Of a DNA stretch of 42,603 nucleotides, positions 17-39,802 are shown in pieces. The position numbers and the translations under genes are program-made. The notes beneath the pieces were generated by a model that made no database searches, had not been told where the DNA came from, and saw only the letters and a program-made list of their open reading frames with translations. Each line of letters begins with the position of its first letter. Position 1 is the stretch's first letter. Source of the DNA: Desulfobacterales bacterium (GTDB lineage Bacteria; Desulfobacterota; Desulfobacteria; Desulfobacterales; JAHEIW01); contig JASFIU010000002.1 of assembly GCA_050122495.1 (NCBI GenBank), positions 1-42,603 of the forward strand. The letters are read 5' to 3'.

Positions 17-83
17 AATTAGCCACGGACCCGTCTTCGCTCTGGCGAGCTTCGCCGCGGCGAAGACGGGTCTGTGGCTAATT
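17..83. repeat. Long imperfect hairpin immediately downstream of the 83..364 gene
   Basis: Arm 17-39 (AATTAGCCACGGACCCGTCTTCG) is the reverse complement of 61-83 with one mismatch. An inner 16-nt perfect palindrome CTTCGCCGCGGCGAAG lies at 50-65. The arms are not internally periodic, unlike the other elements. Confidence 0.8.
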
Positions 84-364
84 TAATAAATGCGGAAAAG
101 CGGGCTCTGGATGTGGGATTTTTTGCATTGCGGACAGCGCCCGGGACGGGTAAAGCGCTTACGATCTTCAAACACAAACCCGCATGCCAGACACTTTGCA
201 GGTGTAATCACGATTTTTTTATCTTGAGAAGCTACCGATCGGGCGATGTGAGTTAAATGCGCATAAACTTCTTTTTCGGAAATCCCCACTTCCCCGGAAA
301 TCTCCCGGGCACTCATCTCCGCCTCACTCAATAGTATTATGATTTTCTGTCTGAGGGTGGGCAT
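83..364 (-). CDS. Small transcriptional regulator, N-terminal HTH fused to a C-terminal Zn-ribbon (CxxC...CxxC)
   Basis: The ORF-track protein contains SAREISGEVGISEKEVYAHL (HTH-like) and CLACG...CPQCK (four-Cys ribbon). ATG at 364 is preferred over the TTG at 373 used by the track. No strong SD is seen. Confidence 0.7.
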   Translation of the reverse strand: MPTLRQKIIILLSEAEMSAREISGEVGISEKEVYAHLTHIARSVASQDKKIVITPAKCLACGFVFEDRKRFTRPGRCPQCKKSHIQSPLFRIY

Positions 365-379
365 GGTCTTCAATTATTT

Positions 380-487
380 AGGTTTCAGGTGTCAGTGTTC
401 AGGTGTCAGGAATGAGCAGGTGAAAGGATTCAAGCCTCAACTTCTATGTTTCTTTTCCTGACACCTGACACCCGACACCTGAAACCT
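380..487. repeat. Periodic-arm hairpin, GGTGTCA/TGACACC heptamer family
   Basis: Left arm 380-410 is AGGTTTCAGGTGTCAGTGTTCAGGTGTCAGG. Right arm 457-487 is CCTGACACCTGACACCCGACACCTGAAACCT, an imperfect reverse complement. The loop is 46 nt. The right arm lies inside the 3-prime end of the radical SAM ORF. Confidence 0.9.
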
Positions 488-1490
488 CTTCTTTTAACAG
501 ACAACACGCAATTTTATATTCCGGCACCCCATCGGCTGTATAGCTTAAATTTTGGGGCTGGATCAGTTTATTCATCACGCAGCCCTCCGGAATATTTAGC
601 TTGAACAAATCGCTCTCATTGAGGCTTTCAACCTCACCCAACATATTGTCTTTGAACTCCAGGCTGTGGAGGGGATAGTCCTCACAAAGGGGGCACCGAT
701 AGACCCTGCCGTTTGGGAATATAAAGTAATTCTGAGAAACCAGCCCGGCACACTCAAAGCGTTCTTCCGGTTCCAAAAAAACCTTCGGAAAGCTGACGGT
801 TACACCATGCCCGGCCACTTTTTGAGCCACGGCCGGAATGATCTCGAGCCATTTAGATTTGGAAACCTGAAGCGTTTGCCCGGGGTCTTTGGTTGATCTG
901 CTTAAAGCGGCTTTGCCCCGCAGCCCGATTACCTGAATGAAAAACCTGTCGAGGCCCAAATTCTTTATTAGGGACGGCATCAATTCGAGTTCATGGATGT
1001 TCATCATACTGACCGTGTAAATCAGGCTGGCAGCAAAGCCTTTATCAACCGCCTTTTGGATGCCCTTCAGACAGATATCGTAGGACCCTTCGCCTCGAAT
1101 CCGATCATTGGTTTCGCGGGTGGCGCCATCGAGGCTGAAACTGAAAAAATCCACCTCCCGGCAGCTGACCCGGCTAAGGATATCATGAAACAGATATCCA
1201 TTGGTATCTACTGTGATAGAAACGAAACCGCGGTCTTTGGCATATTTAACGGCGCCGGCCAGATCCGGGTGCAGGCTGGGCTCACCGCCCAGGAAGATGA
1301 CATTGGTTGCGGCGCTAATGGAAGCGAATTGATCCAGCCAGGCCTTGATGGTGGCCAGGGGCAGATTTTCCTTGCCTTGCTGTTCGGGATTAATATAGCA
1401 GTGCCGACATCGGAGGTTGCATTTTGTTAGGATGTGAAAAAAAAGATTGGAGGCGTTCTTGGAGAAGGCTACGGTTTTTCTGGCGGTCAT
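444..1490 (-). CDS. Radical SAM enzyme with a Cys-rich C-terminal (SPASM/twitch-like) region
   Basis: CNLRCRHCY (CX3CX2C) lies near the N-terminus with a GGEP motif following it. C-terminal cysteines include CAG, CPLCEDY, GCV and CC. The start overlaps the stop of the upstream gene by 4 nt (ATGA). Confidence 0.85.
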   Translation of the reverse strand: MTARKTVAFSKNASNLFFHILTKCNLRCRHCYINPEQQGKENLPLATIKAWLDQFASISAATNVIFLGGEPSLHPDLAGAVKYAKDRGFVSITVDTNGYLFHDILSRVSCREVDFFSFSLDGATRETNDRIRGEGSYDICLKGIQKAVDKGFAASLIYTVSMMNIHELELMPSLIKNLGLDRFFIQVIGLRGKAALSRSTKDPGQTLQVSKSKWLEIIPAVAQKVAGHGVTVSFPKVFLEPEERFECAGLVSQNYFIFPNGRVYRCPLCEDYPLHSLEFKDNMLGEVESLNESDLFKLNIPEGCVMNKLIQPQNLSYTADGVPEYKIACCLLKEEVSGVGCQVSGKET

Positions 1491-1996
1491 ATTTGTTCAA
1501 TCAACCGTTTAACTTTCTTTTTGGTCGCAATCAGCTCTTCGTTGGTGGCGCGCAGCCGAATGGACATGAATTCAGCGAATATGCGGTAAAGCAACAACAA
1601 AAAATCCAATTTTTCATCCTGGGTGTTGCCGGCTGACATTCTTCTTTTTGCGGATGTGTCAACGGCCAGACACATGGTTTCACCGATCGCATAAACGGAT
1701 GCCGATCGGCTCAGGCTGTCGATAACACGCATTTCACCGAAAATTTCACCTTTCGAATCAATGGTGCCGATTTCCATCCCTTCTTTGGTAATTCGTATTT
1801 TGCCGGAAAGCAGAAAGTATAGCCAGGGATCAAAATCACCTTCTTTGATGATCAGCTCGCCGTCCTCATATTCCCGGATTTTACTGAGCCGCAACAACTT
1901 TCCCAGGCTTTTGGTTTCAAAATTCCTAAGCGCTGGAATGGTCAATAATTTTTGAATATTTTCAATATTATCTTTCAGGTACCTGGATTCAAGCAT
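1487..1996 (-). CDS. Stand-alone cyclic-nucleotide-binding (Crp-type cNMP) domain protein
   Basis: A cNMP-binding beta-roll signature is present (GDFDPWLYFLLSGKIRI ... GEIFGEMRVID..SRSASV). No DNA-binding HTH is recognised. GGAGG SD lies 5 nt upstream of the ATG. Confidence 0.75.
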   Translation of the reverse strand: MLESRYLKDNIENIQKLLTIPALRNFETKSLGKLLRLSKIREYEDGELIIKEGDFDPWLYFLLSGKIRITKEGMEIGTIDSKGEIFGEMRVIDSLSRSASVYAIGETMCLAVDTSAKRRMSAGNTQDEKLDFLLLLYRIFAEFMSIRLRATNEELIATKKKVKRLIEQI

Positions 1997-2149
1997 GAAT
2001 TCCTCCCGGCGACGGCGGCCGTCTTAAAATGAGCGCAACATTACTATTTTATACCGCAGACGCTAAAAGGGCAAGGAGGAAATCATAACAATCTGTAATT
2101 ATAGTATATTTTATATATAATTTGATGGACAGTCATGTCCCGGCAACTT

Positions 2150-2237
2150 AGGTGTCTAAGGCCTGGAGGTTTCAGGTGTCAAGTTTCGGGTGTCAGAATT
2201 GATCGACCTGACACCTGAACACTGAAACCAGACACCT
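2150..2237. repeat. Periodic-arm hairpin, GGTGTCA heptamer family, directly downstream of purF
   Basis: Left arm about 2168-2196 is GGTTTCAGGTGTCAAGTTTCGGGTGTCAG. The loop is AATTGATCGAC. Right arm 2208-2237 is CTGACACCTGAACACTGAAACCAGACACCT. About 23 of 30 positions are complementary. A separate 6-bp hairpin GCTAGT-TGAAA-ACTAGC at 2238-2254 covers the purF stop codon. Confidence 0.85.
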
Positions 2238-2249
2238 GCTAGTTGAAAA

Positions 2250-3704
2250 CTAGCAAGTGACTTCCAGGCAATGCTTTGACACCTCCTCATCAAAACTCAC
2301 CGGATAACAACCATCAAAGCAGGCCTTGCAAAAATGTTGCTCCGGATTTTCGATTCCGGTTGACTGCAATAGGCCTTCAATACTGAGGTAGTGCAGCGAG
2401 TCGAGGCCTAAATAATTTTTGAGTTCTTCCACCGATTTGCGGGCAGCGATCAGTTCCCCGCGGGTGGAAAAATCGATGCCGTAATGACACGGAAAGCGAT
2501 GCGGCGGTCCGGCAACCCGCATGTGTACGCGCCGGACACCCAGTTTGCGCAGGGACTTCACCCGGGTTTTGATGGTCGTGCCTCTGATAATGGAATCTTC
2601 AATAATAATCAGATCTTTGCCTTTGAGAAGTTCTTTCACGGGATTGAGCTTAATCCGCACACCGAAATCCCGCATACTCTGCGTGGGTTGGATAAATGTG
2701 CGGCCGACATAGTGATTTCGAATCATTCCCATCTCAAATGGAATACCGGATTCCTCATGATAACCCAGGGCGGCATAGGTTCCGGAATCCGGAAACGGCA
2801 TCACCAGATCAGCATCTACGGGCGCCTCCTGGGCCAGGTGCCGCCCATGGGCCTTGCGGGTCAGATAGACATTTCGGCCGAATATCGTACTATCCGGTCG
2901 CGCAAAATAAATAAGCTCAAAGATGCAGAAGGCGCGGTTTGGTCCAGCGGGGATTTGGATGCTTTTGATGCCGTCTTCACCAATGATGACAATTTCCCCG
3001 GGATTGATTTCACGAATAAACTCGGCTTCCACCAGATCAAACGCGCAGGTTTCTGATGCCAGCAGATAATTGCCGTTGAGTTTGCCCAAACAGAGGGGCC
3101 GGAAACCCTGGGGATCTTTCATCCCGACGACTTCACCCTTGCTGGTCAGCATAACAATAGAAAAAGCGCCCTCCAGCCTGGAAACCGATTCAACGAGCGC
3201 CTGTTCAAAACCGAGCTTCAGGTTTTTGACGAAAAGATGTAAAAAAATCTCGCTGTCCATCGTGGACTGAAAGATAGAACCGGCCTGCTCGAGCTCATTT
3301 TTTAGAATGTGGGCATTGGTAAAATTGCCGTTGTGGGCAACCGCATAAGACTTTTTGCGGTGGTGAACCCGAAAGGGCTGTGCATTGGTCAATATGGAAC
3401 TGCCGGTGGTCGAATAGCGTACATGCCCCACGGCGCTTCCGCCGTCCAGCTGGGCCAATTGATCCATGTCGAAAACATCCGATACCAGCCCCATGCCTTT
3501 GTGCTCAACAATCTGCATATCCCTGGCGACCGCAATGCCGGCACTTTCCTGGCCCCGGTGTTGCAGCGCATAGAGGCCAAAATACGTCAGCGCCGCAGCT
3601 TCGGGATGATCGTAAATTCCAAAAATGCCGCAGGCTTCCCGCGGCTTTTCTTCATCGAAATGTGACATTTGATACTTGGAAGGCGTTGGTTTCGTATTCC
3701 TCAT
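2250..3704 (-). CDS. purF: Amidophosphoribosyltransferase (glutamine PRPP amidotransferase)
   Basis: Ntn-type N-terminus CGIFGI follows a propeptide. A PRTase motif (DLIIIEDSIIRGTT) and C-terminal Cys ligands are present. An alternative ATG at 3668 would give a 12-aa propeptide; the first ATG has GGAG 11 nt upstream. Confidence 0.95.
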   Translation of the reverse strand: MRNTKPTPSKYQMSHFDEEKPREACGIFGIYDHPEAAALTYFGLYALQHRGQESAGIAVARDMQIVEHKGMGLVSDVFDMDQLAQLDGGSAVGHVRYSTTGSSILTNAQPFRVHHRKKSYAVAHNGNFTNAHILKNELEQAGSIFQSTMDSEIFLHLFVKNLKLGFEQALVESVSRLEGAFSIVMLTSKGEVVGMKDPQGFRPLCLGKLNGNYLLASETCAFDLVEAEFIREINPGEIVIIGEDGIKSIQIPAGPNRAFCIFELIYFARPDSTIFGRNVYLTRKAHGRHLAQEAPVDADLVMPFPDSGTYAALGYHEESGIPFEMGMIRNHYVGRTFIQPTQSMRDFGVRIKLNPVKELLKGKDLIIIEDSIIRGTTIKTRVKSLRKLGVRRVHMRVAGPPHRFPCHYGIDFSTRGELIAARKSVEELKNYLGLDSLHYLSIEGLLQSTGIENPEQHFCKACFDGCYPVSFDEEVSKHCLEVTC

Positions 3705-3788
3705 TTATCGAAGTACTCCAAATAAAAGTATTGCATTAAAGACTGTATACATCTATTTACGGCAAATTAATTGACTCGGTGTAAAAAC

Positions 3789-3872
3789 CGAGGAGGAGTA
3801 CGAGTACGACCCCGAGGACGAAAAATGTGGAGTTGAAAATCCTACTCGTCCTCGTGCTCGTGCTCGTCCTCG
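3789..3872. repeat. Periodic-arm hairpin, CGAG(G/T)A hexamer family
   Basis: Left arm 3789-3820 is CGAGGAGGAGTACGAGTACGACCCCGAGGACG. The loop is AAAAATGTGGAGTTGAAAATC. Right arm 3842-3872 is CTACTCGTCCTCGTGCTCGTGCTCGTCCTCG. The element is flanked on both sides by AAAAAC. Confidence 0.9.
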
Positions 3873-3954
3873 AAAAACGACAAGATCTCCAAATTCAGTT
3901 CTTTGGCGAGTATTCGGTTGCGCCACCACAACTGGGTTTCATGATTTAGGCCTT

Positions 3955-7194: not shown

Positions 7195-7200
7195 AAATGC

Positions 7201-7345
7201 TCACTTTGTTCGCAGCTAAAGGAGCGCTACGCTTTAAGATCACTTCGTTTGAGGAGCGCTGCGCTTTAGGCTTAAAAGCCCGCCTCAATCCTAAAGTTCC
7301 GAAGGAACGCGCCTCGAGGCCCAGAGGGCCGCTCCTCTAGTTTCC
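7201..7345. repeat. Structured carA-carB spacer with tandem approx 35-nt units and several small palindromes
   Basis: Direct units lie at 7201-7238 (TCACTTTGTT..AAAGGAGCGCTACGCTTTAAG) and 7239-7270 (ATCACTTCGTTTGAGGAGCGCTGCGCTTTAGG). Small hairpins include GGCTTAAAAGCC and GTTCCGAAGGAAC. GAGGAGCG at 7251-7258 is complementary to CGCTCCTC at 7330-7337. Confidence 0.7.
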
Positions 7346-7373
7346 GCCGCAGGTGGAGACGATCTTTGATGCG

Positions 7374-8507: not shown

Positions 8508-8523
8508 AGAAATAATATTTTGT

Positions 8524-8641
8524 TAGATTGGTTGTATTGGTTTTATTCGTTTAATTGATTCAATTTGTTTAGAGCATTTGGTTCTTAAACTCAAGCCGTT
8601 TAACCAATAGAACCCATCAAACCAATTAGACTAATTCAAAC
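8524..8641. repeat. Periodic-arm hairpin, ATTGGTT family, abutting the stop codon of the GOGAT fusion gene
   Basis: The left arm is TAGATTGGTTGTATTGGTTTTATTCGTTTAATTGATTCAATTTG. Right arm 8598-8641 is GTTTAACCAATAGAACCCATCAAACCAATTAGACTAATTCAAAC. The right arm is near-identical to 11172-11213. Confidence 0.8.
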
Positions 8642-10989: not shown

Positions 10990-11013
10990 TTATGGTCTCC
11001 AAACTATAGAATA

Positions 11014-11114
11014 GTGCCTAAAGTTGGAAGTGACTAAAGTGACTAAAATTTTAAAAGGATAGAATCCGATTTAACTTTAGCTCACTTTAGTTCACTCTAG
11101 TCACTTTAGCTCAC
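11014..11114. repeat. Periodic-arm hairpin, GTGACTAAA / TCACTTTAG 9-10-mer family
   Basis: Left arm 11014-11047 is GTGCCTAAAGTTGGAAGTGACTAAAGTGACTAAA. Right arm 11071-11114 is TTAACTTTAGCTCACTTTAGTTCACTCTAGTCACTTTAGCTCAC. The arms are unequal (about 3 versus 4.5 units). Confidence 0.85.
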
Positions 11115-11116
11115 TC

Positions 11117-11213
11117 GGGTTTTATTGGTTTTATTAGTTTGATTGGTTTAGACACGATCGCTGGTCCTGACGTTAACCAATTGAACCCATCAAACCAATT
11201 AAACGAATTAAAC
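11117..11213. repeat. Periodic-arm hairpin, ATTGGTT family, abutting and overlapping the stop codon of the GOGAT FMN-domain gene
   Basis: Left arm 11117-11151 is GGGTTTTATTGGTTTTATTAGTTTGATTGGTTTAG. Right arm 11172-11213 is GTTAACCAATTGAACCCATCAAACCAATTAAACGAATTAAAC. About 25 of 33 positions are complementary. Confidence 0.85.
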
Positions 11214-13936: not shown

Positions 13937-13960
13937 GGTAATTGATCTCCTTTTTCAGTA

Positions 13961-15540: not shown

Positions 15541-15609
15541 GGTTTCGGGTGTCAGGTGTCAGGTGTCAGAAATGCAAAATCTGAAACCTGAACACTGAAA
15601 CCTAAAACC
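15541..15609. repeat. Periodic-arm hairpin, GGTGTCA heptamer family (cleanest example)
   Basis: Left arm 15541-15569 is GGTTTCGGGTGTCAGGTGTCAGGTGTCAG. The loop is AAATGCAAAAT. Right arm 15581-15609 is CTGAAACCTGAACACTGAAACCTAAAACC. 22 of 29 positions are complementary, and the mismatches recur with the repeat period. Confidence 0.9.
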
Positions 15610-16964: not shown

Positions 16965-16972
16965 CCCAGAAT

Positions 16973-17101
16973 GGAGTAATGGAGTAAAATTAATTGTGGA
17001 TTTTAGATTGCGGATTGCGGATTGAAATATCAAACATATCGCATATTCAAAATCCGCAATCCGAAATCTGCATTCCGAAACCTTGAGTACTCCATCACTC
17101 C
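16973..17101. repeat. Nested periodic-arm palindrome: outer GGAGTAAT-type arms enclosing inner GCGGATT-type arms
   Basis: Outer arm GGAGTAATGGAGTA at 16973-16986 pairs with TACTCCATCACTCC at 17088-17101. Inner arm GTGGATTTTAGATTGCGGATTGCGGATTG at 16996-17024 pairs with CAAAATCCGCAATCCGAAATCTGCATTCCGAAACC at 17048-17082. The central loop is itself near-palindromic. Confidence 0.85.
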
Positions 17102-17173
17102 AAAAGACCTCCCACTTGGCAACATAATTGATTTTGGCAACGAATGTGGATGTTGGATAAAACTTGACCAAAG

Positions 17174-26171: not shown

Positions 26172-26178
26172 AAATAAA

Positions 26179-26203
26179 GCCCTGCTCGAAAGAGCAGGGC
26201 TTT
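26179..26203. terminator. Bidirectional intrinsic terminator between convergent glnA and the sigma-54 activator gene
   Basis: GCCCTGCTC-GAAA-GAGCAGGGC is a perfect 9-bp stem with a GAAA loop. It is followed by TTT on the plus strand and preceded by AAA. Confidence 0.8.
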
Positions 26204-27911: not shown

Positions 27912-27946
27912 TCAATCCAAAATCCGCAATCTAAAATCCAAATTCA
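27912..27946. repeat. Degenerate AATCCGC-type periodic arm ending 1 nt before the dinB start codon
   Basis: CAATCCAAAATCCGCAATCTAAAATCCAAATTCAA has the same unit as 17048-17082 and 31977-32012. Only a weak partner arm (AAAATTGGGTAATGGGAAC, about 27871-27890) lies upstream. Confidence 0.6.
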
Positions 27947-27947
27947 A

Positions 27948-29102: not shown

Positions 29103-29200
29103 TGGTGTTATGTTCCCAAAAAACGCTACCAAAGTTATGTGGAATATTTTAGTGAGCTAGCATTCGTTGAACAACACAATGTCTATGGTTTCAGCCGATT

Positions 29201-29283
29201 CTCGAGTACGAATGCGAGTACGAGGACGATATTTTGTTATCCCATTTTACCCGTCCTCGTCCTCTTCCTCGTTCTCGTACTCG
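29201..29283. repeat. Periodic-arm hairpin, CGAG(G/T)A hexamer family
   Basis: Left arm 29201-29229 is CTCGAGTACGAATGCGAGTACGAGGACGA. The loop is TATTTTGTTATCCCATTTTACC. Right arm 29252-29283 is CGTCCTCGTCCTCTTCCTCGTTCTCGTACTCG. Confidence 0.9.
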
Positions 29284-29293
29284 GGTGTTGTCC

Positions 29294-29374
29294 AATAATT
29301 CATCTGACACCTGACACCCGACTGTGCGGCCGCAGGCGCTATGGCGTGGCGAAGGCCCGAAACCTGACGCCTGA
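29294..29374. repeat. TGACACC-type heptamer arm fragments (single orientation)
   Basis: CTGACACCTGACACCCGAC lies at 29294-29312 and CGAAACCTGACGCCTGA at 29358-29374. A lone GGTTTCAG unit at 29187-29194 sits on the other side of the hexamer hairpin. Confidence 0.6.
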
Positions 29375-29456
29375 TATTAACCGTGTTTTTCAGATGGGCT
29401 TGTCAGACGCAACCCGAGAGCCAACCTTAAAAATCAAAAATAGAGTGAGCCTGGTT

Positions 29457-31916
29457 ATGAAAAAGGAATTCAACAGACGATACGAGGATCTGTTTCAATT
29501 TGTTCCGATCGGTTTTTTTACCTTTGACCGGGGGGGACAAATCCTGGAAGTCAATCCGACCGGCGCCAGACTTCTGGGGACCCGACGGTCGGATTTACTA
29601 AAGCAAAAATTCGCGGATTATATTGTTGCGGATTTCCAGAGTGGATTCCAGCACCATTGTAAAAAAGTGTTTGAATCCGGCAACCGTGAAACCTACGATC
29701 TGCGTATACGCAAAAAGGGCCGGGCATCCTTTTGGGCGCAACTCGAAAGTATTGCCATTAAGCCCCATAATCGAAGCGCAAACGGCCGTCACTTTAATAC
29801 CGCCATAACGGATATCTCGGACCGCAAACAAGCCGAGGAAGCCCTGTGTAACGCCCTTGAAAAATCCAATCAGCAAGCCAAAGAAGTATCGTCTTTGCTT
29901 GAAAGTTCCCGGGCTGTCCTACAATATCGTGAATTTAAAGATTCCGCCAAATCCATATTCAATTCCTGCAAAAATCTGATCGGCGCCAGGGCCGGTTATG
30001 TGGCCTTATTAACCAAAGATGGCACCGAAAATGAATTGCTGCATCTGGACGCCGGCGGACTGGCCTGCACGGTGGATACCGAACTTCCGATGCCGATCCG
30101 GGGATTGCGCGAAAAAGCCTACCGCGCCTGCAACACGGTCTATGAAAATCGGTTTTCGCAAAGCAAATGGACCCAATTTTTGCCTGACGGACACGTCAAG
30201 CTCGATAATGTCTTATTTGCGCCCCTTGTGATTGACAACAAAGCCGTCGGCTTGCTGGGCCTGGCCAACAAACCGGGCGGATTCACAAAAGAAGATGCCC
30301 GCATCGCATCGGGTTTCAGTGAATTTGCTTCGGTGGCCCTCTTTAACAGCCACACCCTGGAATCATTGGAGCACAGCGAGGAGCGCTTCAGAACCGTGGT
30401 GGAAACTGCGATCGATGCCATCATCACCGTCGACAGTCGTGGAAAAATAATATTCTGGAACCCTCAGGCTGAACGGATGTTTGGCTATTCCGCAAAGGAT
30501 ATGATCGGTAAACCCGTTGCCGTTATTATGCCCGAACGATTCCGGCAAGCCCATCAACTGGGCTTAAGAAAAGCGGCTCAACATCAGATGCCCAAAATCG
30601 CTGGTCATATCCTTGAGCTGGTCGGGTTGCGAAAGGACGGCAATGAATTTCCCCTGGAACTATCCCTGGCAAACTGGGATACCAAAGAGGGTGTTTTCTT
30701 TACAGCGATCATCCGCGATATCAGCGAACGCAAACTTGCTGAAATAGAGTTGCAAACGGCTCGCAACGAACTGGAGCGCCGGGTAGTTGAACGCACCACC
30801 GAACTCGGAACAACCAACGAGAAATTGCGCCAGCAAATATCCGAATGCGAGCAGGCCGAGCTCGCCTTGCGTGAATCCGAACACAAATATGCGACTCTGG
30901 TCGAAGACGCTTTGATTGGCGTATATATCATCAAAGACGGAAAAATTGAATTTGCCAATGATAAATTTGCCGACATCTACGGCTATTCCAAAGACGAATT
31001 GATCGGCATGGACTCCCTGGACCTGGTTCATCCGGATGACCGGCCGCTGGTCAAAAAATTAAGAGAAAAAAGGCTTAAAGGCGAAAAAGTGCCGGTTGAG
31101 TATGAAAGCAAAAGCGTGAGAAAAAACGGTGATATCATCTGGGTCATGCGAAGCTTCTCACAGATAAACTATAAGGGGGGCGCCGCGATTTCAGGAATTG
31201 TTGCTGATATAACCAAACGCCGCGAGGCTGAAGAAGCATTGCGAAAATCTGACAAAGAGTTGCGCATTTTGTCCAACCAGCTCCTTTCAGCCGAAGAAAA
31301 GGAGCGCAAACGGATCGCCCGTGAACTGCACGACGGTATCGGGCAGGCTTTAAGTGCTATTAAATTCAGCGTGGAAAACGCCCTTCTGGAATTGCGTGAA
31401 ACAACAAACCCGATTGATCTGGGGTCTTTGGAGGCCGTCATCCCCTTAACCCAGAAAACCATCGAAGAGGTTCGTAGAATCGTAATGGATTTGAGGCCTT
31501 CCATTTTAGATGACCTCGGAATTCTGGCGACCATCGGATGGTTTTGCCGGGAATTTAAAAATGTCTATACCGGAATCCGAATTGAAACCACCATCGACAT
31601 TAAGGAAGATGAGGTTCCGCAACACCTCAAAACGATTATTTATCGCATTTTGCAAGAGGCCCTAAACAACGTCGCCAAACACAGCCAGGCCAATTTTGTT
31701 CACCTGCGACTGCGAAAAAAGGAAACGGGTATGGAATTGATCATCCATGATAACGGACGCGGATTCAATCTGGACCAGGCCATGGCCTTAAAAACATCCC
31801 GTCGGGGATTTGGGCTGGCCAGCATGCGGGAACGGGCCGAAATGTCGGGAGCGGCGTTTGAAATTGATTCAATAATCGGACGCGGAACCACGGTCAGGGT
31901 TGTTTGGAACGGCTAG
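29457..31916 (+). CDS. Sensor histidine kinase, PAS-GAF-PAS-PAS-HisKA_3-HATPase (NarL-partner class)
   Basis: The H-box is ELHDGIGQAL and HATPase N/G boxes are present (LQEALNNVAKH, DNGRGF, GFGLASMRERA). There are multiple PAS segments. The start is set at ATG 29457 (alternative 29394) because the 29139 GTG ORF extension is translated repeat DNA. Confidence 0.85.
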   Translation: MKKEFNRRYEDLFQFVPIGFFTFDRGGQILEVNPTGARLLGTRRSDLLKQKFADYIVADFQSGFQHHCKKVFESGNRETYDLRIRKKGRASFWAQLESIAIKPHNRSANGRHFNTAITDISDRKQAEEALCNALEKSNQQAKEVSSLLESSRAVLQYREFKDSAKSIFNSCKNLIGARAGYVALLTKDGTENELLHLDAGGLACTVDTELPMPIRGLREKAYRACNTVYENRFSQSKWTQFLPDGHVKLDNVLFAPLVIDNKAVGLLGLANKPGGFTKEDARIASGFSEFASVALFNSHTLESLEHSEERFRTVVETAIDAIITVDSRGKIIFWNPQAERMFGYSAKDMIGKPVAVIMPERFRQAHQLGLRKAAQHQMPKIAGHILELVGLRKDGNEFPLELSLANWDTKEGVFFTAIIRDISERKLAEIELQTARNELERRVVERTTELGTTNEKLRQQISECEQAELALRESEHKYATLVEDALIGVYIIKDGKIEFANDKFADIYGYSKDELIGMDSLDLVHPDDRPLVKKLREKRLKGEKVPVEYESKSVRKNGDIIWVMRSFSQINYKGGAAISGIVADITKRREAEEALRKSDKELRILSNQLLSAEEKERKRIARELHDGIGQALSAIKFSVENALLELRETTNPIDLGSLEAVIPLTQKTIEEVRRIVMDLRPSILDDLGILATIGWFCREFKNVYTGIRIETTIDIKEDEVPQHLKTIIYRILQEALNNVAKHSQANFVHLRLRKKETGMELIIHDNGRGFNLDQAMALKTSRRGFGLASMRERAEMSGAAFEIDSIIGRGTTVRVVWNG

Positions 31917-32012
31917 ATTTCGGATTGCGGATTTCGGATTTGGGATTTGGGATTTAAAAAAATGTTCCTCCTTTTAAAAAATCCGCAATCCGCAATCTGA
32001 AATCCGAAATCG
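31915..32012. repeat. Periodic-arm hairpin, GCGGATT heptamer family, filling the whole convergent gap
   Basis: Left arm 31915-31955 is AGATTTCGGATTGCGGATTTCGGATTTGGGATTTGGGATTT. The loop is A/T-rich. Right arm 31977-32012 is AAAATCCGCAATCCGCAATCTGAAATCCGAAATCGG. The element starts inside the kinase stop codon and ends 2 nt before the regulator stop codon. Confidence 0.9.
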
Positions 32013-32014
32013 GG

Positions 32015-33505: not shown

Positions 33506-33535
33506 TTGACATTGGAAAACGTTTAATTTCATTAT
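33506..33535 (+). promoter_or_regulatory. Sigma-70-type promoter candidate for the porin gene
   Basis: TTGACA at 33506-33511 is followed by an 18-nt spacer and CATTAT at 33530-33535. Confidence 0.35.
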
Positions 33536-33552
33536 ACAAGGAGGAGTTTAAG

Positions 33553-34650: not shown

Positions 34651-34664
34651 AAAGAAAGGCAATT

Positions 34665-35171
34665 ATGCATCACAATCAATCAATCCTGTGGGCGTTTTTT
34701 GGAATCGTTCTGTCGGCAGCGCTGTTGACGGGCTGCGGCGCCAAAGGACAGCCGGCTGAATTTGAGCAGACGGCCGGGGAGATGAAAGAGGGACCCGGTG
34801 TTTTCACCGGCGAAGAGGGCGAATTTACAATCTTTGACTCCAAGAAGGGCGGCCCCTTCTGGAGGCATTCCCAGGAGAAATCTGAGGAAGCTTCCAACGA
34901 GACGGGCAAGGCGGCCCCGGCGACTTCGGACCAAAGCGCTGAGGTATCCGCAACTCAGCTTGCTGCTGAAGACCGGTCCAAAGAATCTGGTGTCAGCCCT
35001 GAAGCCGCCAAGGAATTCCAGGAATTTCAGGAATGGAAAAAAGAGCAAAAGGAATTCCGCGAATTTCAGGAATGGAAAAAAACATCCCAAGGCGCAGCTG
35101 AGTACAGGGAATTTCTGGAGTGGAAGGAATGGAAGACCTATCAGGAATGGAAAAAGCGGCAGAAACAATAA
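34665..35171 (+). CDS. Lipoprotein with C-terminal EF(Q/R)EWKK tandem repeats
   Basis: The lipobox is LLTGC. A low-complexity acidic middle is followed by KEFQEFQEWKKEQKEFREFQEWKK...EYREFLEWKEWKTYQEWKK. A 36-nt DNA unit is duplicated around 35021-35092. Confidence 0.65.
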   Translation: MHHNQSILWAFFGIVLSAALLTGCGAKGQPAEFEQTAGEMKEGPGVFTGEEGEFTIFDSKKGGPFWRHSQEKSEEASNETGKAAPATSDQSAEVSATQLAAEDRSKESGVSPEAAKEFQEFQEWKKEQKEFREFQEWKKTSQGAAEYREFLEWKEWKTYQEWKKRQKQ

Positions 35172-35252
35172 GTGGATTGAACGGATCTGCATGCTTCCGT
35201 ACCGAATAGGAACACCTCAGACATAGGCCCCTTATAAAAGGGTTTCATTTTG

Positions 35253-35292
35253 AGGCAGGGCCTTATCCTGCGATCAGGCCCTGCTTTATTTT
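35253..35292 (+). terminator. Intrinsic terminator after the porin-lipoprotein pair
   Basis: GCAGGGCCT at 35255-35263 pairs with AGGCCCTGC at 35276-35284 (9 bp) around a 12-nt loop. TTTATTTT follows. Confidence 0.75.
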
Positions 35293-35306
35293 CTGGCAAT
35301 GAATGG

Positions 35307-35329
35307 AAATGAGCCGACCTCATTTTTTT
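35307..35329 (+). terminator. Second, tandem intrinsic terminator
   Basis: AAATGAG-CCGAC-CTCATTT is followed by a T-run (TTTTTTT overall). Confidence 0.55.
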
Positions 35330-35374
35330 AGGCAGGGAATGACTAGTTAACCCTGAAAGGACTCCATATTTTTC

Positions 35375-35403
35375 TTGACATACAACATATAGTATGAGAT
35401 AAA
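35375..35403 (+). promoter_or_regulatory. Sigma-70-type promoter candidate for nrdJ with a long leader
   Basis: TTGACA at 35375-35380 is followed by a 17-nt spacer and GATAAA at 35398-35403. This implies a leader of about 270 nt. Confidence 0.4.
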
Positions 35404-35682
35404 TGTTAACTGCACTACATGATAGGCTAATTCGGAAAACCGGTCATCCCGAACTCTGACCAGAGTTGACCTTAAACAGGTAATACCCAACCTTTTTATA
35501 TTACAACGACACGATTTCCCTTTAGCCGTATCACATCTTATCGAGCAGGTTAAAATTCCTCAAAGCGATACAAAAAAGATGGCAAACGCCCAGATAGTTG
35601 CGGGTTTTTTTATTCCAAAATACCGGCGACACTACAGCGAATAATTCAAAAAGATACATATCCTCAAATCAGGAGCAGCGCA

Positions 35683-38175
35683 ATGGGGCAGAAAGGCAAA
35701 TTTTTAGTTACGAGCGAAGGCAGTTTCGATCTCAGCACCTATACCTGGGATGATCAGCTTTTTTCAGACATTCTCGTCCGTGAAAACCCGATCGATGCCA
35801 ACCAGGCCTTGGGTATCAGCCAGTCCTTGCGTGAAGATATTTCCAAGCTGGAAATCAACACCATTCCGGTCGTGTTTATCGAAAAAATGATTGAAGCCAA
35901 GCTAATGGAATACGGGCTGACCAAACCCTCACCGATTCATCTGGACAAATCGATTTTCGTAAAAAATCGATTGAATCTCTCCGATAACGCCAGAAGGGTT
36001 TTAAGAAGACGCTATTTGAGAAAAAGCCGCATAGGCAAAGTCATTGAAACCCCGGAGCAAATGTTTCGACGGGTAGCGAACCATATCGCCAAAGCAGAGA
36101 AAAAATACGGGGACAAATCCAGCGGCCAGGTAGATCAGTGGGAAGAAATCTTCCACGAGATGATGACCGATGGAAAGTTTCTGCCCAACTCTCCCACCCT
36201 CATGAACGCCGGGCGCCGGCTGGCTCAGCTGGCCGCCTGTTTTGTCTTGCCGGTTGAAGACAGCATGGAGGGCATATTCGGGGCCCTGCACCATGCGGCC
36301 CTGATTCATAAATCCGGCGGCGGAACCGGTTTTGCATTTTCACGGCTGCGTCCGAAAAACAGCACCGTCGGCACAACCGGCGGCGTGGCCTCGGGTCCGG
36401 TTTCGTTTATGAAGATTTTCAATACCGCCACCGAGCAAGTCAAGCAAGGCGGCACCCGCCGCGGGGCCAACATGGCGATTTTACGGGTGGATCACCCGGA
36501 TATCATGGAATTCATCTTCAGCAAAGAAGACAACAGCGAGCTCAATAATTTTAATATCTCGGTGGGCGTCTCCGACAAATTTATGAAAGCCGTTGACCGG
36601 CAGGAGGACTATGACCTGATCGATCCCCGCGATCAGAGCGCGGTTGGCCGCTTAAATGCGGCTGATGTTTATCAAACCCTGATAAAGCAGGCCTGGAAAA
36701 ACGGAGATCCGGGTATCATCTTTTTAGATCGTATTAACCAGGATAACCCCACACCGCATCTCGGTGACATCGAAAGCACCAATCCCTGCGGTGAACAACC
36801 ACTGCTTCCGATGGAAGCCTGCAATCTGGGCTCAATCAATTTGGCCAAATTTGTGCTGGAAAATGGAGACGGACCGGTCATCGATTTTGAAGGCTTAAAA
36901 GAGGTGGTCGGCTGGTCGGTGCGGTTTTTAGACAACACCATTGACATGTCCAAATATCCGCTCCCGGAAATCGATGAAATGGTCAAAGGCAACCGCAAAA
37001 TCGGTTTGGGGGTTATGGGCTTTGCCGATATGCTTTTTCAGCTAAAAATTCCGTATAACTCCGATGAAGCGCTGGAAACCGCGGAAACGGTGATGCAGTT
37101 TATACAGGAAAAAGCCCACGAAACGTCTCAAAATCTGGCCGAAGAGCGGGGTGTCTTTCCCAATTGGAAACAAAGCATCTACAAGCGTCACGGCCTCAAA
37201 CTGCGTAACGCCACCTGTACCACCATCGCGCCCACCGGTACATTGAGCATCATTGCCGGATGCTCCAGCGGTATCGAGCCGCTGTTTGCGCTGAGCTTTA
37301 TTCGCAATGTGATGGACAACGATAAACTGCTGGAAGTCAACCCCCATTTTGAAGAGGTGGCCAACGATCAACGCTTTTACAGCCGTGAGCTGATGGATGA
37401 AATTGCCAAAAGAGGCAGCATCAAAAAGATCAAACAAATACCCAAAGACGTCCGCAAGGTATTTGTCACCGCCCATGATGTATCGCCGGATTGGCATATC
37501 CGCATGCAGGCTGCCTTTCAGAAATATACCGATAATGCCGTATCCAAAACCGTCAATCTTCCCCGGGATGCCACCGTCGAGGACGTCATGAAGGTTTATA
37601 ATCTGGCCAATGAACTGGGCTGCAAAGGGGTGACGATTTATAGAGACGGCAGCAAAGAAAACCAGGTCTTATCGTTTTCTCAAAAAGACCGGCGCAAGGA
37701 CGATTTCATGTCCGCCGTCAAGGAACGGCCGGAGACCCTGGATGGTTTCACCACCAAAATGAAAACCGGCTACGGCCATCTTTATGTGACCGTCACTGAA
37801 TATGACGGCAAGCCCTTTGAAGTCTTTGCCACCATCGGCAAGTCCGGCCGGTCCACCACCGCTAAAACCGAAGCCATCGGCCGCCTGGCCTCTTTGGCGC
37901 TCAGGTCGGGCATAAAAGTGAATGAGATCGTCCATCAGCTCAAAGGTATCGGCGGTGAACATCCTGTCTTTCAGAACGGCGGATTGGTGCTGTCCATCCC
38001 GGACGCCATCGCTCGGGTGCTGGACCGACGGTACCTTTCCGGTGATGCCGCCAAACGAAATCACAAATCTGAAAACAGCCTTATGGGTGAAAAATGCCCC
38101 GAATGCGGGCAGACGGTTAGTTTCGAGGAGGGGTGTATACTCTGTCACTTCTGTGGCTTCAATAAATGCGGATGA
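35683..38175 (+). CDS. nrdJ: Class II (adenosylcobalamin-dependent) ribonucleotide reductase
   Basis: The N-terminal region LSDNARRVLRRRYL is present. The active-site region is TNPCGEQPLLPMEACNLGSINL. A C-terminal Cys4 ribbon (CPECGQ...CILCHFCG) is present. It is 830 aa with an AGGAG SD. Confidence 0.88.
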   Translation: MGQKGKFLVTSEGSFDLSTYTWDDQLFSDILVRENPIDANQALGISQSLREDISKLEINTIPVVFIEKMIEAKLMEYGLTKPSPIHLDKSIFVKNRLNLSDNARRVLRRRYLRKSRIGKVIETPEQMFRRVANHIAKAEKKYGDKSSGQVDQWEEIFHEMMTDGKFLPNSPTLMNAGRRLAQLAACFVLPVEDSMEGIFGALHHAALIHKSGGGTGFAFSRLRPKNSTVGTTGGVASGPVSFMKIFNTATEQVKQGGTRRGANMAILRVDHPDIMEFIFSKEDNSELNNFNISVGVSDKFMKAVDRQEDYDLIDPRDQSAVGRLNAADVYQTLIKQAWKNGDPGIIFLDRINQDNPTPHLGDIESTNPCGEQPLLPMEACNLGSINLAKFVLENGDGPVIDFEGLKEVVGWSVRFLDNTIDMSKYPLPEIDEMVKGNRKIGLGVMGFADMLFQLKIPYNSDEALETAETVMQFIQEKAHETSQNLAEERGVFPNWKQSIYKRHGLKLRNATCTTIAPTGTLSIIAGCSSGIEPLFALSFIRNVMDNDKLLEVNPHFEEVANDQRFYSRELMDEIAKRGSIKKIKQIPKDVRKVFVTAHDVSPDWHIRMQAAFQKYTDNAVSKTVNLPRDATVEDVMKVYNLANELGCKGVTIYRDGSKENQVLSFSQKDRRKDDFMSAVKERPETLDGFTTKMKTGYGHLYVTVTEYDGKPFEVFATIGKSGRSTTAKTEAIGRLASLALRSGIKVNEIVHQLKGIGGEHPVFQNGGLVLSIPDAIARVLDRRYLSGDAAKRNHKSENSLMGEKCPECGQTVSFEEGCILCHFCGFNKCG

Positions 38176-38238
38176 CAAAAATTTTAGAATAAAATTTTTG
38201 TCAGTTATCAGTTATTGGTTAATGGTTATTCGGTTTTG
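38173..38238. repeat. 13-bp perfect AT-rich hairpin containing the nrdJ stop codon, followed by five tandem GTTATTG-type heptamers
   Basis: TGACAAAAATTTT at 38173-38185 pairs with AAAATTTTTGTCA at 38191-38203. Next comes GTTATCA GTTATTG GTTAATG GTTATTC GGTTTTG at 38204-38238, in one orientation only. Confidence 0.8.
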
Positions 38239-38243
38239 ATAAA

Positions 38244-38273
38244 GGCAGAATCATAAATGATTCTGCCTTTTTT
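38244..38273. terminator. Bidirectional intrinsic terminator between nrdJ and zur
   Basis: GGCAGAATCA-TAAA-TGATTCTGCC is a perfect 10-bp stem. It is followed by TTTTTT on the plus strand and preceded by an A-rich run. Confidence 0.8.
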
Positions 38274-38300
38274 GATTTTGGGTGATGGGCTTTGGGGTTG

Positions 38301-38750
38301 TTAATGTATTGGATTTTTCTCGGTTTGCAGGCAGGTTTTGCAGACGCCATCGACACGCACTTCTATGTTTTGAATCAAGCCCGCAAAGGTTTGCTGCATC
38401 GGCTGGGTGTCCACATTGAGACTCTGTGGTGTTAAACATTCCATGTGGCCGCAGCTTTTACAGTAAAAATGGGAATGCGCCGGATGATAATCGTTGGGTG
38501 CCAAACCGTAAACAAATGACCGCCCGCCGCCGCTAAGTCGCTGGACCAGTCCACGCTTCACAAGCAAATCAAGAATCCGATAAACCGTCACGCGGTTAAT
38601 CGAGGTGTTGGGTTCTAAAGTTTTATAAATATCACCGGCCGAAACAGGGGCGTTTGTGTTTCCGATGGCTTCTAAAACACGGAGACGATTAGCGGATACC
38701 CCGAGCTGGCATGATTTTAATAGTTCTGTATAATCACATTGATGACACAT
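38301..38750 (-). CDS. zur: Fur-family metalloregulator, probably Zur
   Basis: A winged-helix region (RVTVYRILDLLVKRGLV) is present with CxxC pairs (CKSCGH, CKTC). It is the last gene of a znu-type operon. AAGGAG SD overlaps the znuB stop. Confidence 0.7.
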   Translation of the reverse strand: MCHQCDYTELLKSCQLGVSANRLRVLEAIGNTNAPVSAGDIYKTLEPNTSINRVTVYRILDLLVKRGLVQRLSGGGRSFVYGLAPNDYHPAHSHFYCKSCGHMECLTPQSLNVDTQPMQQTFAGLIQNIEVRVDGVCKTCLQTEKNPIH

Positions 38751-38759
38751 GTTAACTCC

Positions 38760-39605
38760 TTATGGATTGGTGCTGGAAACGGTTTTTGAATTCTGCCGGC
38801 GCCAGGCAAACAGATGGTCAACCAAAAAGAAAAGAAAAAAAGTGATTCCGGCAACCATTATAATGGACGCGCCCGATGTCAGGTCAAAAGCGTATGAAAG
38901 CCAAAGACCGCTTATCGTAAAAACTGCCCCCAGCAGGCTTGAGCCCACCATCATTTGAAAAAGGGATTTGGCATACTTTTCGATGATAAACGGCGGGATG
39001 GTTAACAGCGCTATCACAAGGATTAGCCCTACGACCTGGATGACCATCACAATCGTGATTGCCAGAATACCGATTAGGGCAAAATAAAGCGCCCGAATCG
39101 GCACCCCCCGAACGCGGGCAAATTCCTCATCGTAAGATATCGCCAACAGATCTTTATAAAAAAGGATGGCAAAGCCGGCAATCAAGGCTCCCACCATCAG
39201 CATAATCCACAAATCCGATCCGGGGACGGTTAAAATGCTGCCAAACAGATAGCTCATCAGATCCACATTGTATCCGGGTGTCAAGTCCAACAATATAATA
39301 CCGCAGGCCATGCCCAGGGCCCAGATGACACCGATGATCGTATCGGCCCGATGTTTGGCCTTCAGACTGACCGCGGCCATAACCATTGCCGCCGCAAGGG
39401 AAAACCCGAGGGTGCCGACCAGGTAAGGCCAACCCAGGAAGAAGGATAGGCCGATCCCTCCGTAAGCGGCGTGGGCGATTCCGCCGGACAGAAAAACGAT
39501 GCGGTTGACCACCACCAGGGTTCCCATGACCCCGCAGATGACACTGGCGAGCAAGCCGGCCGCCAGGGCATTCCGCATAAATTCATATTGCAGGGCTTCA
39601 AGCAT
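38760..39605 (-). CDS. znuB: ABC-3 family metal (Zn/Mn) transporter permease
   Basis: The 281-aa ORF is polytopic. ZnuB/TroCD-like segments are present (FMRNALAAGLL, GGIAHAAYGG). Confidence 0.85.
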   Translation of the reverse strand: MLEALQYEFMRNALAAGLLASVICGVMGTLVVVNRIVFLSGGIAHAAYGGIGLSFFLGWPYLVGTLGFSLAAAMVMAAVSLKAKHRADTIIGVIWALGMACGIILLDLTPGYNVDLMSYLFGSILTVPGSDLWIMLMVGALIAGFAILFYKDLLAISYDEEFARVRGVPIRALYFALIGILAITIVMVIQVVGLILVIALLTIPPFIIEKYAKSLFQMMVGSSLLGAVFTISGLWLSYAFDLTSGASIIMVAGITFFLFFLVDHLFAWRRQNSKTVSSTNP

Positions 39606-39677
39606 CGGATTACGTTTCGTAATTTCTCAAATTTCTTAGAGCTCAAGTACTTTTTGAGGCCAACTTTTTTTAAGCCA

Positions 39678-39802
39678 TATGGAATAGTGGAATATTGGAA
39701 TACTGGGTAGGTGGAACGCGGAAAATACCTGCAAAATTATCCCCTCAAAATCCGTTTTCTTGATACCCATCATTCCAATATTCCATTATTCCACCATTCC
39801 GC
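39678..39802. repeat. Periodic-arm hairpin, GGAATANT octamer family, inside the znuC-znuB gap
   Basis: Left arm from 39678 is TATGGAATAGTGGAATATTGGAATACTGGGTAGGTGGAA. Right arm 39766-39802 is CCCATCATTCCAATATTCCATTATTCCACCATTCCGC. The loop is about 45 nt. Confidence 0.85.

Follow-up and report, generated by a model that had tools for sequence, protein, structure and literature searches.

Tandem-repeat-armed hairpins between the genes of a Desulfobacterales bacterium and their probable kinship with PF05635-carrying elements

What are the hairpins, built from short tandem repeats, that fill so many of the gaps between the genes of a gene-dense bacterial genome, and have elements of this kind been seen before? 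The question is raised by a stretch of 42,603 nucleotides from a Desulfobacterales bacterium (contig JASFIU010000002.1 of assembly GCA_050122495.1; hereafter the window), ~50% GC and from a sulfate-reducer-like genome, in which elements of the form (unit)n, loop, (reverse-complement unit)n stand between protein-coding genes. A sequence-only reading of the stretch had proposed an undescribed class that shares a design but no sequence. We find instead that the elements are of an already known, if little understood, kind, that of intervening-sequence-like and paired tandem-repeat elements, and are neither classical terminators nor ordinary repetitive extragenic palindromic (REP) elements. With moderate confidence, we read them as members, lacking an open reading frame (ORF), of a widespread foldback element class that resembles the intervening sequences of ribosomal RNA and whose fuller members carry a gene of family PF05635.

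Repeat families, polarity and turnover

The elements were detected as Tandem Repeats Finder (TRF) tracts followed by local alignment to the reverse complement, with a partner accepted up to 130 nt away; this procedure replaced an ungapped inverted-repeat detector with a periodicity filter, which missed half of the elements because their arms contain indels. With TRF the window yields 41 tracts of period 5-20, compared with 5.4 +/- 2.2 in 100 dinucleotide-preserving shuffles, and clusters of a tract with an inverted partner number ten in the window and zero in 100 dinucleotide shuffles. By our count 12-13 hairpins are spread over ten gaps, where at least 15 gaps had been claimed, the others being a plain palindrome, classical terminators or unpaired arrays; calculated from the coordinates, the hairpins take up about one-fifth of the window's intergenic DNA. 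The units listed from the letters alone and their periods of 6-10 nt hold up in TRF, and so does the imperfection of the arms, which by the inverted-repeat tool measure 20-48 nt in the window (typically about four units, or 25-45 nt), are predicted to form stems of at least 20 bp and are 70-92% complementary. The loops are A/T-rich as described, with 44-82% A+T against 51% for the window as a whole. There is no T-run in the 12-nt tails 3' of the 3' arms, and no match of a terminator scan is one of the repeat elements, genuine intrinsic terminators being found elsewhere in the window; the elements are thus not classical intrinsic terminators, as had been noted. Two contigs from other samples (L201 and L202; L-numbers label the comparison loci), which encode an M48 peptidase identical to that of the window, independently reproduce both elements flanking the M48 gene, the one at 15541-15609 without change and the one at 16970-17102 with one single-nucleotide polymorphism. 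This rules out an assembly artefact and argues that the elements are not hypervariable at this scale.

What had been taken for unrelated unit sequences falls into about seven families, GGTGTCA, GCGGATT, TGGAGTAN, TGGAATAN, ATTGGTTNN, GTGACTAAA and CGAGGA, and some recur within the window itself (GGTGTCA four times, GCGGATT three times, CGAGGA and ATTGGTT twice each). Applied to 80 loci of ~20 kb each from related genomes (L001-L080), the same detector finds the architecture in the close clade and, scattered, in more distant Desulfobacterales, with units identical to the window's families (AGGTGTC, TGGAGTAN, TGGAATAN, GGATTTN, ATTGGTTTA and AAGTGACTA) as well as additional ones (GCGCATAG, AGCGGTC, GGTTCAAG and GAGGACA). 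Two tandem GGTGTCA units are present in at least 120 metagenome contigs, whose GC content spans 37-71% among the matches listed. Since the same families recur in the window, in its relatives and in very different metagenomes, the description "same design, unrelated sequence" is wrong. A BLAST search of one GGTGTCA hairpin against plasmids gave no match, for which the low-complexity filter may be the cause.

The arrays also have a preferred order. Among the matches listed, 121 GGTGTCA arrays could be evaluated; a TGACACC-type partner lies downstream of 62 of them and upstream of none, while 59 are unpaired, and the G-containing arm is accordingly 5' in 62 of 62 pairs. Over all families of the window and the genome loci, 44 elements are G-first, 7 C-first and 4 mixed, and an order of variant units such as TCAGTGTTCAGG recurs in at least 16 loci. 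The units act like dispersed repeat families of fixed polarity. In their profiles a core is conserved and the spacer positions are fully degenerate (TGGAGTAn, TGGAATAn, ATTGGTTnn), and pairs with a TCAG core have a median of four units in both arms and a median spacer of 48 nt (range 11-106), the sizes of the two arms being weakly correlated and sometimes very unequal. Tandem tracts as dense as those of the window, ~9-11 per 10 kb, also occur in three loci from Parabeggiatoa/Thiotrichaceae metagenome-assembled genomes (L064, L076 and L077; M48 homologues 55-57% identical to the window's), none of them with an inverted partner.

Most window elements fold well beyond shuffled sequence (z from -3.5 to -8.4), and the A/T-rich ATTGGTT family barely does so (z = -1.2 and -2.8). 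For 27 elements whose sense strand is known from co-directional neighbours, we aligned the arms ignoring wobble pairing and counted 788 Watson-Crick, 32 G:U, 38 A:C and 111 transversion-type positions. There is no excess of G:U on the sense strand of these 27 elements (p = 0.55), and on this negative result we set aside a tuned RNA structure. The arms differ at the degenerate spacer positions of the units, and the mismatches fall there; conservation concerns the array of motifs and the way it is oriented and does not extend to base pairing in the transcript. Covariance models of Rfam gave no match at gathering score on either strand of the whole window.

Comparison of orthologous gaps shows turnover at the DNA level: elements come and go, lie nested in one another and take each other's place. 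The junction between gltB and gltD reads stop-TTTGGAGAC-ATG, 17 nt, in two relatives (L001 and L004) and measures 15 nt in a third (L031), whereas in the window it extends to 218 nt and holds two elements, placed precisely after the stop codon and before the ribosome-binding site. At the same junction L007 has one element of the ATTGGTT family, which it shares with the window's site, and L011 has only the 3' half of a GTGACTAAA element. Filled and empty sites reveal no clear target-site duplication, at most TT(T/C)G. In the gap behind the M48 gene, nine of 11 close relatives carry a hairpin whose units vary from genome to genome (TGGAGTA, GGATTTN or GCGCATAG); in the window a GCGGATT hairpin occupies the loop between TGGAGTA arms, and there are relatives with either family alone. 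In the gap before the M48 gene the units are GGTGTCA, TGGAGTA or CGAGGA, and in L004 and L005 a GAGGACA hairpin lies inside GGTGTCA arms. Nesting is thus seen twice in the window (16970-17102 and 29187-29374) as well as in L004, L005 and L092. Unit number changes too, the 5' arm at 15541 having four units in the window and three in L002. The gap between znuC and znuB, finally, is an empty 16 nt in L045; in L042 it contains a PF05635 gene, and in the window an ORF-less TGGAATA hairpin.

Within the window the elements have co-directional neighbours in ten cases and a convergent gene pair in one, and their starts range from 43 nt within the upstream ORF to 83 nt past its stop, mostly 0-21 nt from the stop. 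The avoidance of divergent gaps that had been proposed is therefore true of the window but fails as a strict rule: across 201 sequences, on crude ORF calls, 72 elements are co-directional, 12 convergent, 16 divergent and 16 coding, where gap length predicts 59, 12 and 29 for the three intergenic classes, a moderate depletion of divergent gaps (16 of 100 against 29 expected, p = 0.011). The distance from the upstream stop codon in the same sequences has a median of 21 nt, with 54% within 30 nt. This position fits purifying selection that spares harmless insertions, and a function is not required to account for it. The supposed exclusion from the glnD-amtB-PII-glnA block does not generalize either, as L021 has elements between glnD and amtB and again between amtB and the PII gene. 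GC-rich REP-like palindromes lie inside or beside array arms in the window (29323-29357), in L011 (9838-9878) and, downstream of PF05635, in L209-L227; small elements of a second kind seem to be drawn to the sites where the arrays lie.

PF05635 genes between the arms

PF05635 (TIGR02436, "four helix bundle protein") is the S23p family of 23S rRNA intervening sequences in Leptospira, Coxiella and Brucella, and it is also represented in rRNA insertions of candidate phyla radiation (CPR) bacteria. Avd, which serves diversity-generating retroelements as an accessory protein, is a homologue of the family (PMC10053308). The link of PF05635 with the arrays emerged from arms without a near partner, for which we searched G-arm/C-arm pairs 370-750 nt apart. 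Wide GGTGTCA pairs bracket PF05635 genes in four loci (L171, L132, L117 and L197; E 1e-22 to 1e-35), in L117 with the gene on the opposite strand, and a look for larger cargo such as a transposase between arm pairs returned only PF05635 genes and ordinary genes. A profile made from these four proteins and searched in the comparison loci yielded three extra copies: one flanked by another family, GGTGGAGG / CCACCTCC, which is G-first too (L115), a truncated gene between GGATTCAAG arms (L041), and the gene inside the znuC-znuB gap (L042).

The association also holds in the reverse direction. In eight distinct PF05635 contexts sampled by protein similarity alone, period-7 arrays adjoin the gene in all eight, and on both sides in five; in the first six contexts TRF detected an array in five, compared with 14.7% of genes in L001-L080. 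Whenever the gene has an arm on each side, the G-arm is the 5' one. The contexts are diverse. In Marinimicrobia (L203), three TCAGCGG units run from the upstream stop codon and the downstream side is weak, the neighbours being aminotransferase and glyoxalase genes; in Deinococcus aetherius (L205), four TCAGCCG units upstream face four GCTGACA units downstream, next to an acetyltransferase gene and carA; and in a member of the Thermodesulfobacteriota (L206), two TTAGCGG units upstream face AGCTGAA/AGCTAAT downstream. L208 has four AGTTAGC units upstream and CTGATTG-type units downstream, with two genes for a resistance-nodulation-division (RND) pump as neighbours, and L234-L243 have four TGAGATA/TGAGTAT units upstream and five CTCAATA units downstream, next to a NuoF-like and an Fe-S oxidoreductase gene. 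L209-L218 and L219-L227 have no upstream array, a divergent upstream gene and a downstream array of GCTAACC and AGCTAAC, respectively. In Desulfobacter (L228, L229 and L244, the name coming from the protein hit behind L244 and extended to the other two by common gene context), TGAGTAN and NTACTCA arrays enclose the gene, next to an HlyD-like and a glycosyltransferase gene. The upstream TGAGTAN array (~670-700) counts 4, 6 and 3 units in L228, L229 and L244, a copy-number polymorphism that resembles the heptamer variation between Coxiella strains. Most PF05635 homologues were recovered on contigs of 0.5-2 kb that end close to the gene, which suggests that the flanking arrays routinely break short-read assemblies.

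One locus, downstream of the same gene in three relatives, is found in three states: a simple short hairpin and no element in L039, an ORF-less GGATTCAAG/GGGTTCAAG hairpin in L044, and arms of the GGATTCAAG family around an N-terminal fragment of PF05635 in L041. The link between arrays and PF05635 appears to be unreported within the literature searched. There, the combination of S23p or four-helix-bundle proteins with heptameric or tandem repeats led to the Coxiella paper alone, in a search that was not aimed at intergenic repeat hairpins, and the repeat sequence as a literal string had no match.

That paper describes a close parallel. The 23S intervening sequence of Coxiella is a selfish element of 428 nt with a 28-bp terminal stem; its 5' region has 2-3 tandem GACAGAT heptamers, their number depending on the strain, ahead of a decaying S23p ORF, and RNase III cleaves it in the stem, at the first repeat (PMC4990558). 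GACAGA-type units are also present in four of our comparison loci (L004, L005, L124 and L198). Like our elements, the 23S intervening sequences of Coxiella and Leptospira have an inverted-repeat stem of about 28 bp, tandem heptamers in the arm region and, in the centre, a PF05635 ORF that decays or is absent; they insert into hairpin loops and are held to be selfish. Tandem heptamer-like repeats in the stem arm, as in Coxiella, are a feature of the window elements. They differ in that intervening sequences are single copies in rRNA helices, whereas the window has about 12 elements of about seven families in 42 kb, in intergenic parts of mRNAs and without an ORF. No rRNA gene lies in the window, so the location in a 23S or 16S rRNA helix is not shared, and a PF05635 ORF between arms is seen not there but in L171, L132, L117, L197, L115, L205, L228 and L234; the window copies would thus be ORF-less derivatives rather than full members. 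On the best-supported reading, the rRNA-resident members of the foldback class are the classical intervening sequences.

In anatomy, each element consists of two inverted arrays of a family-specific 6-10-nt motif, the G-containing array being 5', around a centre that may be a few nucleotides, a nested element or a PF05635 gene (four-helix-bundle, S23p, Avd-like). The insertions that survive sit just behind stop codons, at places where nothing is disrupted. The window copies might then relate to PF05635-carrying elements as miniature inverted-repeat transposable elements (MITEs) do to transposons, or as ORF-less to ORF-bearing rRNA intervening sequences, and by that analogy they may derive from, or depend on, PF05635-bearing copies. 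Transcribed within operon mRNAs, they would form long imperfect duplexes, which RNase III would probably cut as it does rRNA intervening sequences, with altered mRNA processing and stability as the expected outcome.

Several observations weigh against this picture. A profile search finds no PF05635 gene in the window, and the membership of its elements would follow from architecture, shared families and analogy; RNase III cleavage of the window elements, and any effect on expression, are predictions. We found no PF05635 gene flanked by exact TGGAGTAN, TGGAATAN, ATTGGTT or GTGACTAAA units, the nearest flanks being TGAGTAN in Desulfobacter and GGATTC in L041. The GGTGTCA-flanked PF05635 proteins are just 21-42% identical to one another, which does not clearly favour either the element's own gene or a passenger, and a co-variation of PF05635 clades with array families is unsupported at depth; as the clades do not track the families, the gene could be a passenger that lands in hairpin loops. 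Two of the sampled contexts have a 3' array only, one of them a C-first hairpin around a REP-like sequence. In the loci compared we saw no clear target-site duplication, no transposase and no identical paralogous copy, and the loops of copies within one family are unrelated.

The elements and their neighbours along the window

The window encodes radical-SAM and cyclic-nucleotide-monophosphate (cNMP)-binding proteins, a glutamine amidotransferase (GATase), carB and carA, a three-gene glutamate-synthase-like set, an M48 peptidase, glnE, the glnD-amtB-PII-glnA block, a sigma-54 activator, dinB, a PAS histidine kinase with a LuxR-type regulator, a porin, a class II ribonucleotide reductase, fur-znuBCA and cysS. 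The nearest relatives of its M48 peptidase, at 80-84% amino-acid identity, are from metagenome-assembled genomes of Desulfobacterales. An exact-protein look-up of the cNMP-binding ORF found no match, probably because its GTG start is wrong.

The first GGTGTCA-family hairpin, 380-487, has arms at 380-412 and 455-487 around a 42-nt loop and folds at -59.8 kcal/mol (z = -8.4). The radical-SAM ORF (444-1490, minus strand) draws its final ~14 codons and its stop from the 3' arm of this hairpin, so that the protein ends in ...EEVSGVGCQVSGKET, taken from the hairpin arm; the element has therefore rewritten either the C-terminus of the protein or the ORF call. A second member of the family, 2167-2238 (arms 2167-2196 and 2208-2238; z = -3.5), lies 11 nt past the stop of the GATase gene (minus strand), and a CGAGGA/CGAGTA hairpin of period 6 follows downstream of carB at 3796-3872 (arms 3796-3821 and 3846-3872; z = -5.3). 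The gap between a gltD-like gene and carA is occupied by a thermodynamically weak ATTGGTTNN-family hairpin of period 9 (8516-8635; z = -1.2), which starts 5 nt past the upstream stop codon and ends 8 nt ahead of the carA ATG. The carA gene has no Shine-Dalgarno sequence in this clade, and in the window it is the C/A-rich 3' arm that ends 8 nt ahead of the start; upstream of carA in L004 and L011, (AACACCA/AACACGA)n units form a long direct array that reaches the start codon and resembles the TAACTGA-before-start pattern of Beggiatoaceae. We considered translational coupling, with the G-arm at the stop codon and the C/A-arm as a ribosome landing pad, and rejected it, as the distance from the 3' arm to the following start is irregular, at 8-170 nt, and the majority of downstream genes come with a Shine-Dalgarno sequence of their own. 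The carA-carB gap (7195-7373, 179 nt) is conserved with L003 (2622-2805) and is full of ordinary small hairpins; it contains two copies of a palindromic motif, AAAGCGYAGCGCTCC, resembling the GRCGTAGCGCTGCTACGCC family of Geobacter and Desulfotalea (PMC2700814).

The two elements of the gltB/gltD junction adjoin each other, a GTGACTAAA-family hairpin of period 9-10 at 11013-11115 (z = -5.4) and a ATTGGTTNN-family hairpin at 11118-11213 that overlaps the gltB stop codon (z = -2.8). Between the cNMP-binding and M48 peptidase genes, the GGTGTCA-family hairpin 15541-15609 (z = -4.7) has periodic G.A mismatches where GGTGTCA units face GGTTTCA units, in agreement with the mismatches of repeating phase that had been described. 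The nested pair after the M48 gene, 16970-17102 (z = -8.4), has outer TGGAGTAN arms at 16970-16987 and 17083-17102 and an inner GCGGATT hairpin at 16998-17080 (arms 16998-17024 and 17050-17080). A second nested composite, 29187-29374, has as its outer layer a degenerate element of the GGTGTCA family (with GGTTTCAG at 29187-29194 and the C-arm at 29304-29322 and 29358-29374), which holds an inner CGAGGA hairpin (29203-29283; arms 29203-29229 and 29257-29283; z = -5.9) and the GC-rich REP-like palindrome at 29323-29357. The predicted ORF 29139-31916 begins too early and runs through this composite; the PAS histidine kinase most likely starts at an ATG near 29458 (MKKEFNRR...), and for this reason we count the composite as intergenic. 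A GCGGATT/TCGGATT hairpin occupies the gap between the convergent histidine-kinase and response-regulator genes (31916-32011; z = -6.6), and a TGGAATAN-family hairpin of period 8 lies in the znuC/znuB gap (39680-39800; arms 39680-39709 and 39764-39800; z = -5.3).

Other repeats and hairpins in the window do not belong to the paired elements. An unpaired C-type array on the plus strand, with AATCCGC/AATCCAA units of the GCGGATT family, stands directly ahead of the dinB start codon (27913-27939). Also on the plus strand, at 38201-38235, two TCAGTTA units (38201-38215), the reverse complement of TAACTGA, precede GTTATTG-like units and are followed by a classical terminator at 38241-38270. Further classical terminators are found at 26172-26201 (scan match 26179-26195) and ~35243-35291, the latter a terminator-like hairpin in the 511-nt leader (35172-35682) of the class II ribonucleotide reductase gene, a leader that had no Rfam match at the gathering threshold. 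A plain palindrome without tandem repeats, with 32-nt arms of 88% complementarity, lies at 17-83, directly after the stop of a small ORF with helix-turn-helix/zinc-ribbon-like features (83-373, minus strand), and no second copy of it was found in the comparison loci. For the TGACACC arrays we also considered a role as three-frame stops and dropped it, as most families encode no stop codons.

Competing explanations and significance

The architecture is not new. In Geobacter metallireducens, Aklujkar et al. (2009) listed 24, 21 and 8 pairs of 3-5 tandem units of 7-9 nt on opposite strands, named them "putative global regulator binding sites" and proposed binding by integration host factor (IHF) or HU; class 3, (TCAGRAK)n ... 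(MTYCTGA)n, is G-first (PMC2700814). Together with the heptamer-armed stem of the Coxiella intervening sequence (PMC4990558), these pairs overturn the claim of an undescribed class. The three Geobacter classes (GTTGCTYN, TCTCCGTS[Y] and MTYCTGA) are intergenic, for example between proB and proA, have a variable spacer and are G-first, and the window elements share their opposite-strand tandem units, variable spacer, intergenic location and polarity. The Geobacter sites are described only in the genome paper and its supplements, where they are not linked to PF05635, to gain and loss or to other phyla. The TAACTGA repeats that MacGregor described in Beggiatoaceae are in direct orientation and stand immediately upstream of start codons; of 170 sets only one is inverted (PMC4679880). 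Like our elements, TAACTGA and the cyanobacterial STRR (short tandemly repeated repetitive) repeats represent tandem heptamers, exclusively intergenic, of several families and from several phyla, but TAACTGA is direct and before starts, whereas the window elements are paired in inverted orientation and sit a short way downstream of stops. Many families have in common a core of TCAG or T(C/T)AGC with period 7, including GGTGTCA, Geobacter class 3, the PF05635 flanks in Marinimicrobia and Deinococcus, and TAACTGA. Helices built from STRR sequences were reportedly described in cyanobacterial RNase P RNA by Vioque in 1997. Eukaryotic foldback (FB) transposons have long inverted terminal repeats composed of short tandem repeats, around a centre that is variable or absent; being eukaryotic, kilobase-scale and without homology, they are an architectural analogy only.

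Could the hairpins instead be RNA structures selected by the host and evolved in place, as terminators without a U-tract, stabilisers of 3' ends or intercistronic processing signals, with the repeats incidental? Their proximity to stop codons, the co-directional or convergent neighbours of all 11 window elements, the strong folding of most and the retention of some hairpin after the M48 gene in nine of 11 relatives are what such signals would predict. We nevertheless find this rather unlikely: G:U is not in excess over A:C and the mismatches are mostly transversions, the folding of the ATTGGTT family is at chance level, close relatives lack any element at the orthologous operon junctions, identical units appear in genomes across the 37-71% GC range given above, pairing alone does not demand a fixed polarity, classical terminators are already present at operon ends, and elsewhere the same arms bracket a gene. 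The arrays might also be binding sites in duplex DNA for nucleoid-associated or global regulators such as IHF or HU, the proposal made for Geobacter (PMC2700814), and a conserved core with degenerate spacer positions, a fixed head-to-head orientation and about four units per arm whatever the unit length would all suit a protein target. Yet a unit spacing of 6-10 bp misfits the helical repeat, each of many unrelated motif families would need a protein of its own, and the elements are mostly away from promoters and dispensable at orthologous sites, so that we hold this explanation quite improbable as stated; it is compatible with the foldback reading, in which PF05635 itself could be the binding protein.

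REP and REPIN elements, moved by a REP-associated tyrosine transposase (RAYT, an IS200/IS605-like Y1 transposase) acting on single-stranded DNA hairpins, are another candidate. REPs, bacterial interspersed mosaic elements (BIMEs), REPINs and MITEs are likewise short, non-coding, palindromic, intergenic and 3' of genes, come in families, and are clustered, nested and variable in presence; several families coexist in one genome, orthologous gaps stay occupied while the family differs, as known for REPs, and REP-like GC-rich palindromes co-occur with the arrays (window 29323-29357, L011, L209-L227). Against this, the arms of our elements are tandem arrays and not a single imperfect palindrome, which bears out the earlier distinction from ordinary REP/BIME palindromes; the ends, reading AGGTTTCAGG, TGGAATAGTGG, GATTTCGG and similar, have no GTAG or CGTC tag; spacers vary freely in length and sequence and are unrelated between copies; no clear target-site duplication and no transposase relative was seen; and although inverted ends are a MITE feature, the larger relatives carry PF05635 between their arms and not a transposase. 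No RAYT was seen in the 42.6-kb window and the ~20-kb relative loci, to which the search was confined. We consider a RAYT-driven origin very improbable. Least credible of all, and by our estimate hardly worth entertaining, are neutral local by-products, in which one arm of a pre-existing hairpin would undergo microsatellite-like slippage and template switching would carry the change over to the other arm, independently from site to site. Such slippage would explain why unit number varies between close relatives (window and L002) and between samples (L228, L229 and L244) and why arms can be very unequal, but it is largely refuted by the sharing of families across loci, including the same order of variant units (TCAGTGTTCAGG in at least 16 loci) at unrelated loci and genomes, and it accounts neither for the absolute polarity nor for the association of arrays with PF05635 genes.

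One could also speculate on a wider unity, which we regard as unlikely but worth stating: a single cross-phylum selfish superfamily embracing the repeat hairpins, the Geobacter sites, many STRR/TAACTGA-type arrays and the rRNA intervening sequences, with PF05635 as a trans-acting factor. A pentameric, Avd-like PF05635 protein would read arrays of about 4-5 short units; RNase III would excise the elements from transcripts, and an RNA or single-strand intermediate would find its way to hairpin loops and stop-codon-proximal sites, the G-first polarity being a footprint of the spreading mechanism.

The present data link three things, namely repeat-armed hairpins, PF05635 and the rRNA intervening sequences that are cut by RNase III. 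For 35 years, short heptamers repeated in tandem between bacterial genes have turned up in scattered reports and gone unexplained, and outside diversity-generating retroelements PF05635 ranks among the most frequent bacterial proteins whose function is unknown. There are practical consequences as well: the arrays appear to break metagenome assemblies, many PF05635 contigs ending there, and they mislead ORF callers, two ORFs of the window having been mis-extended through elements.

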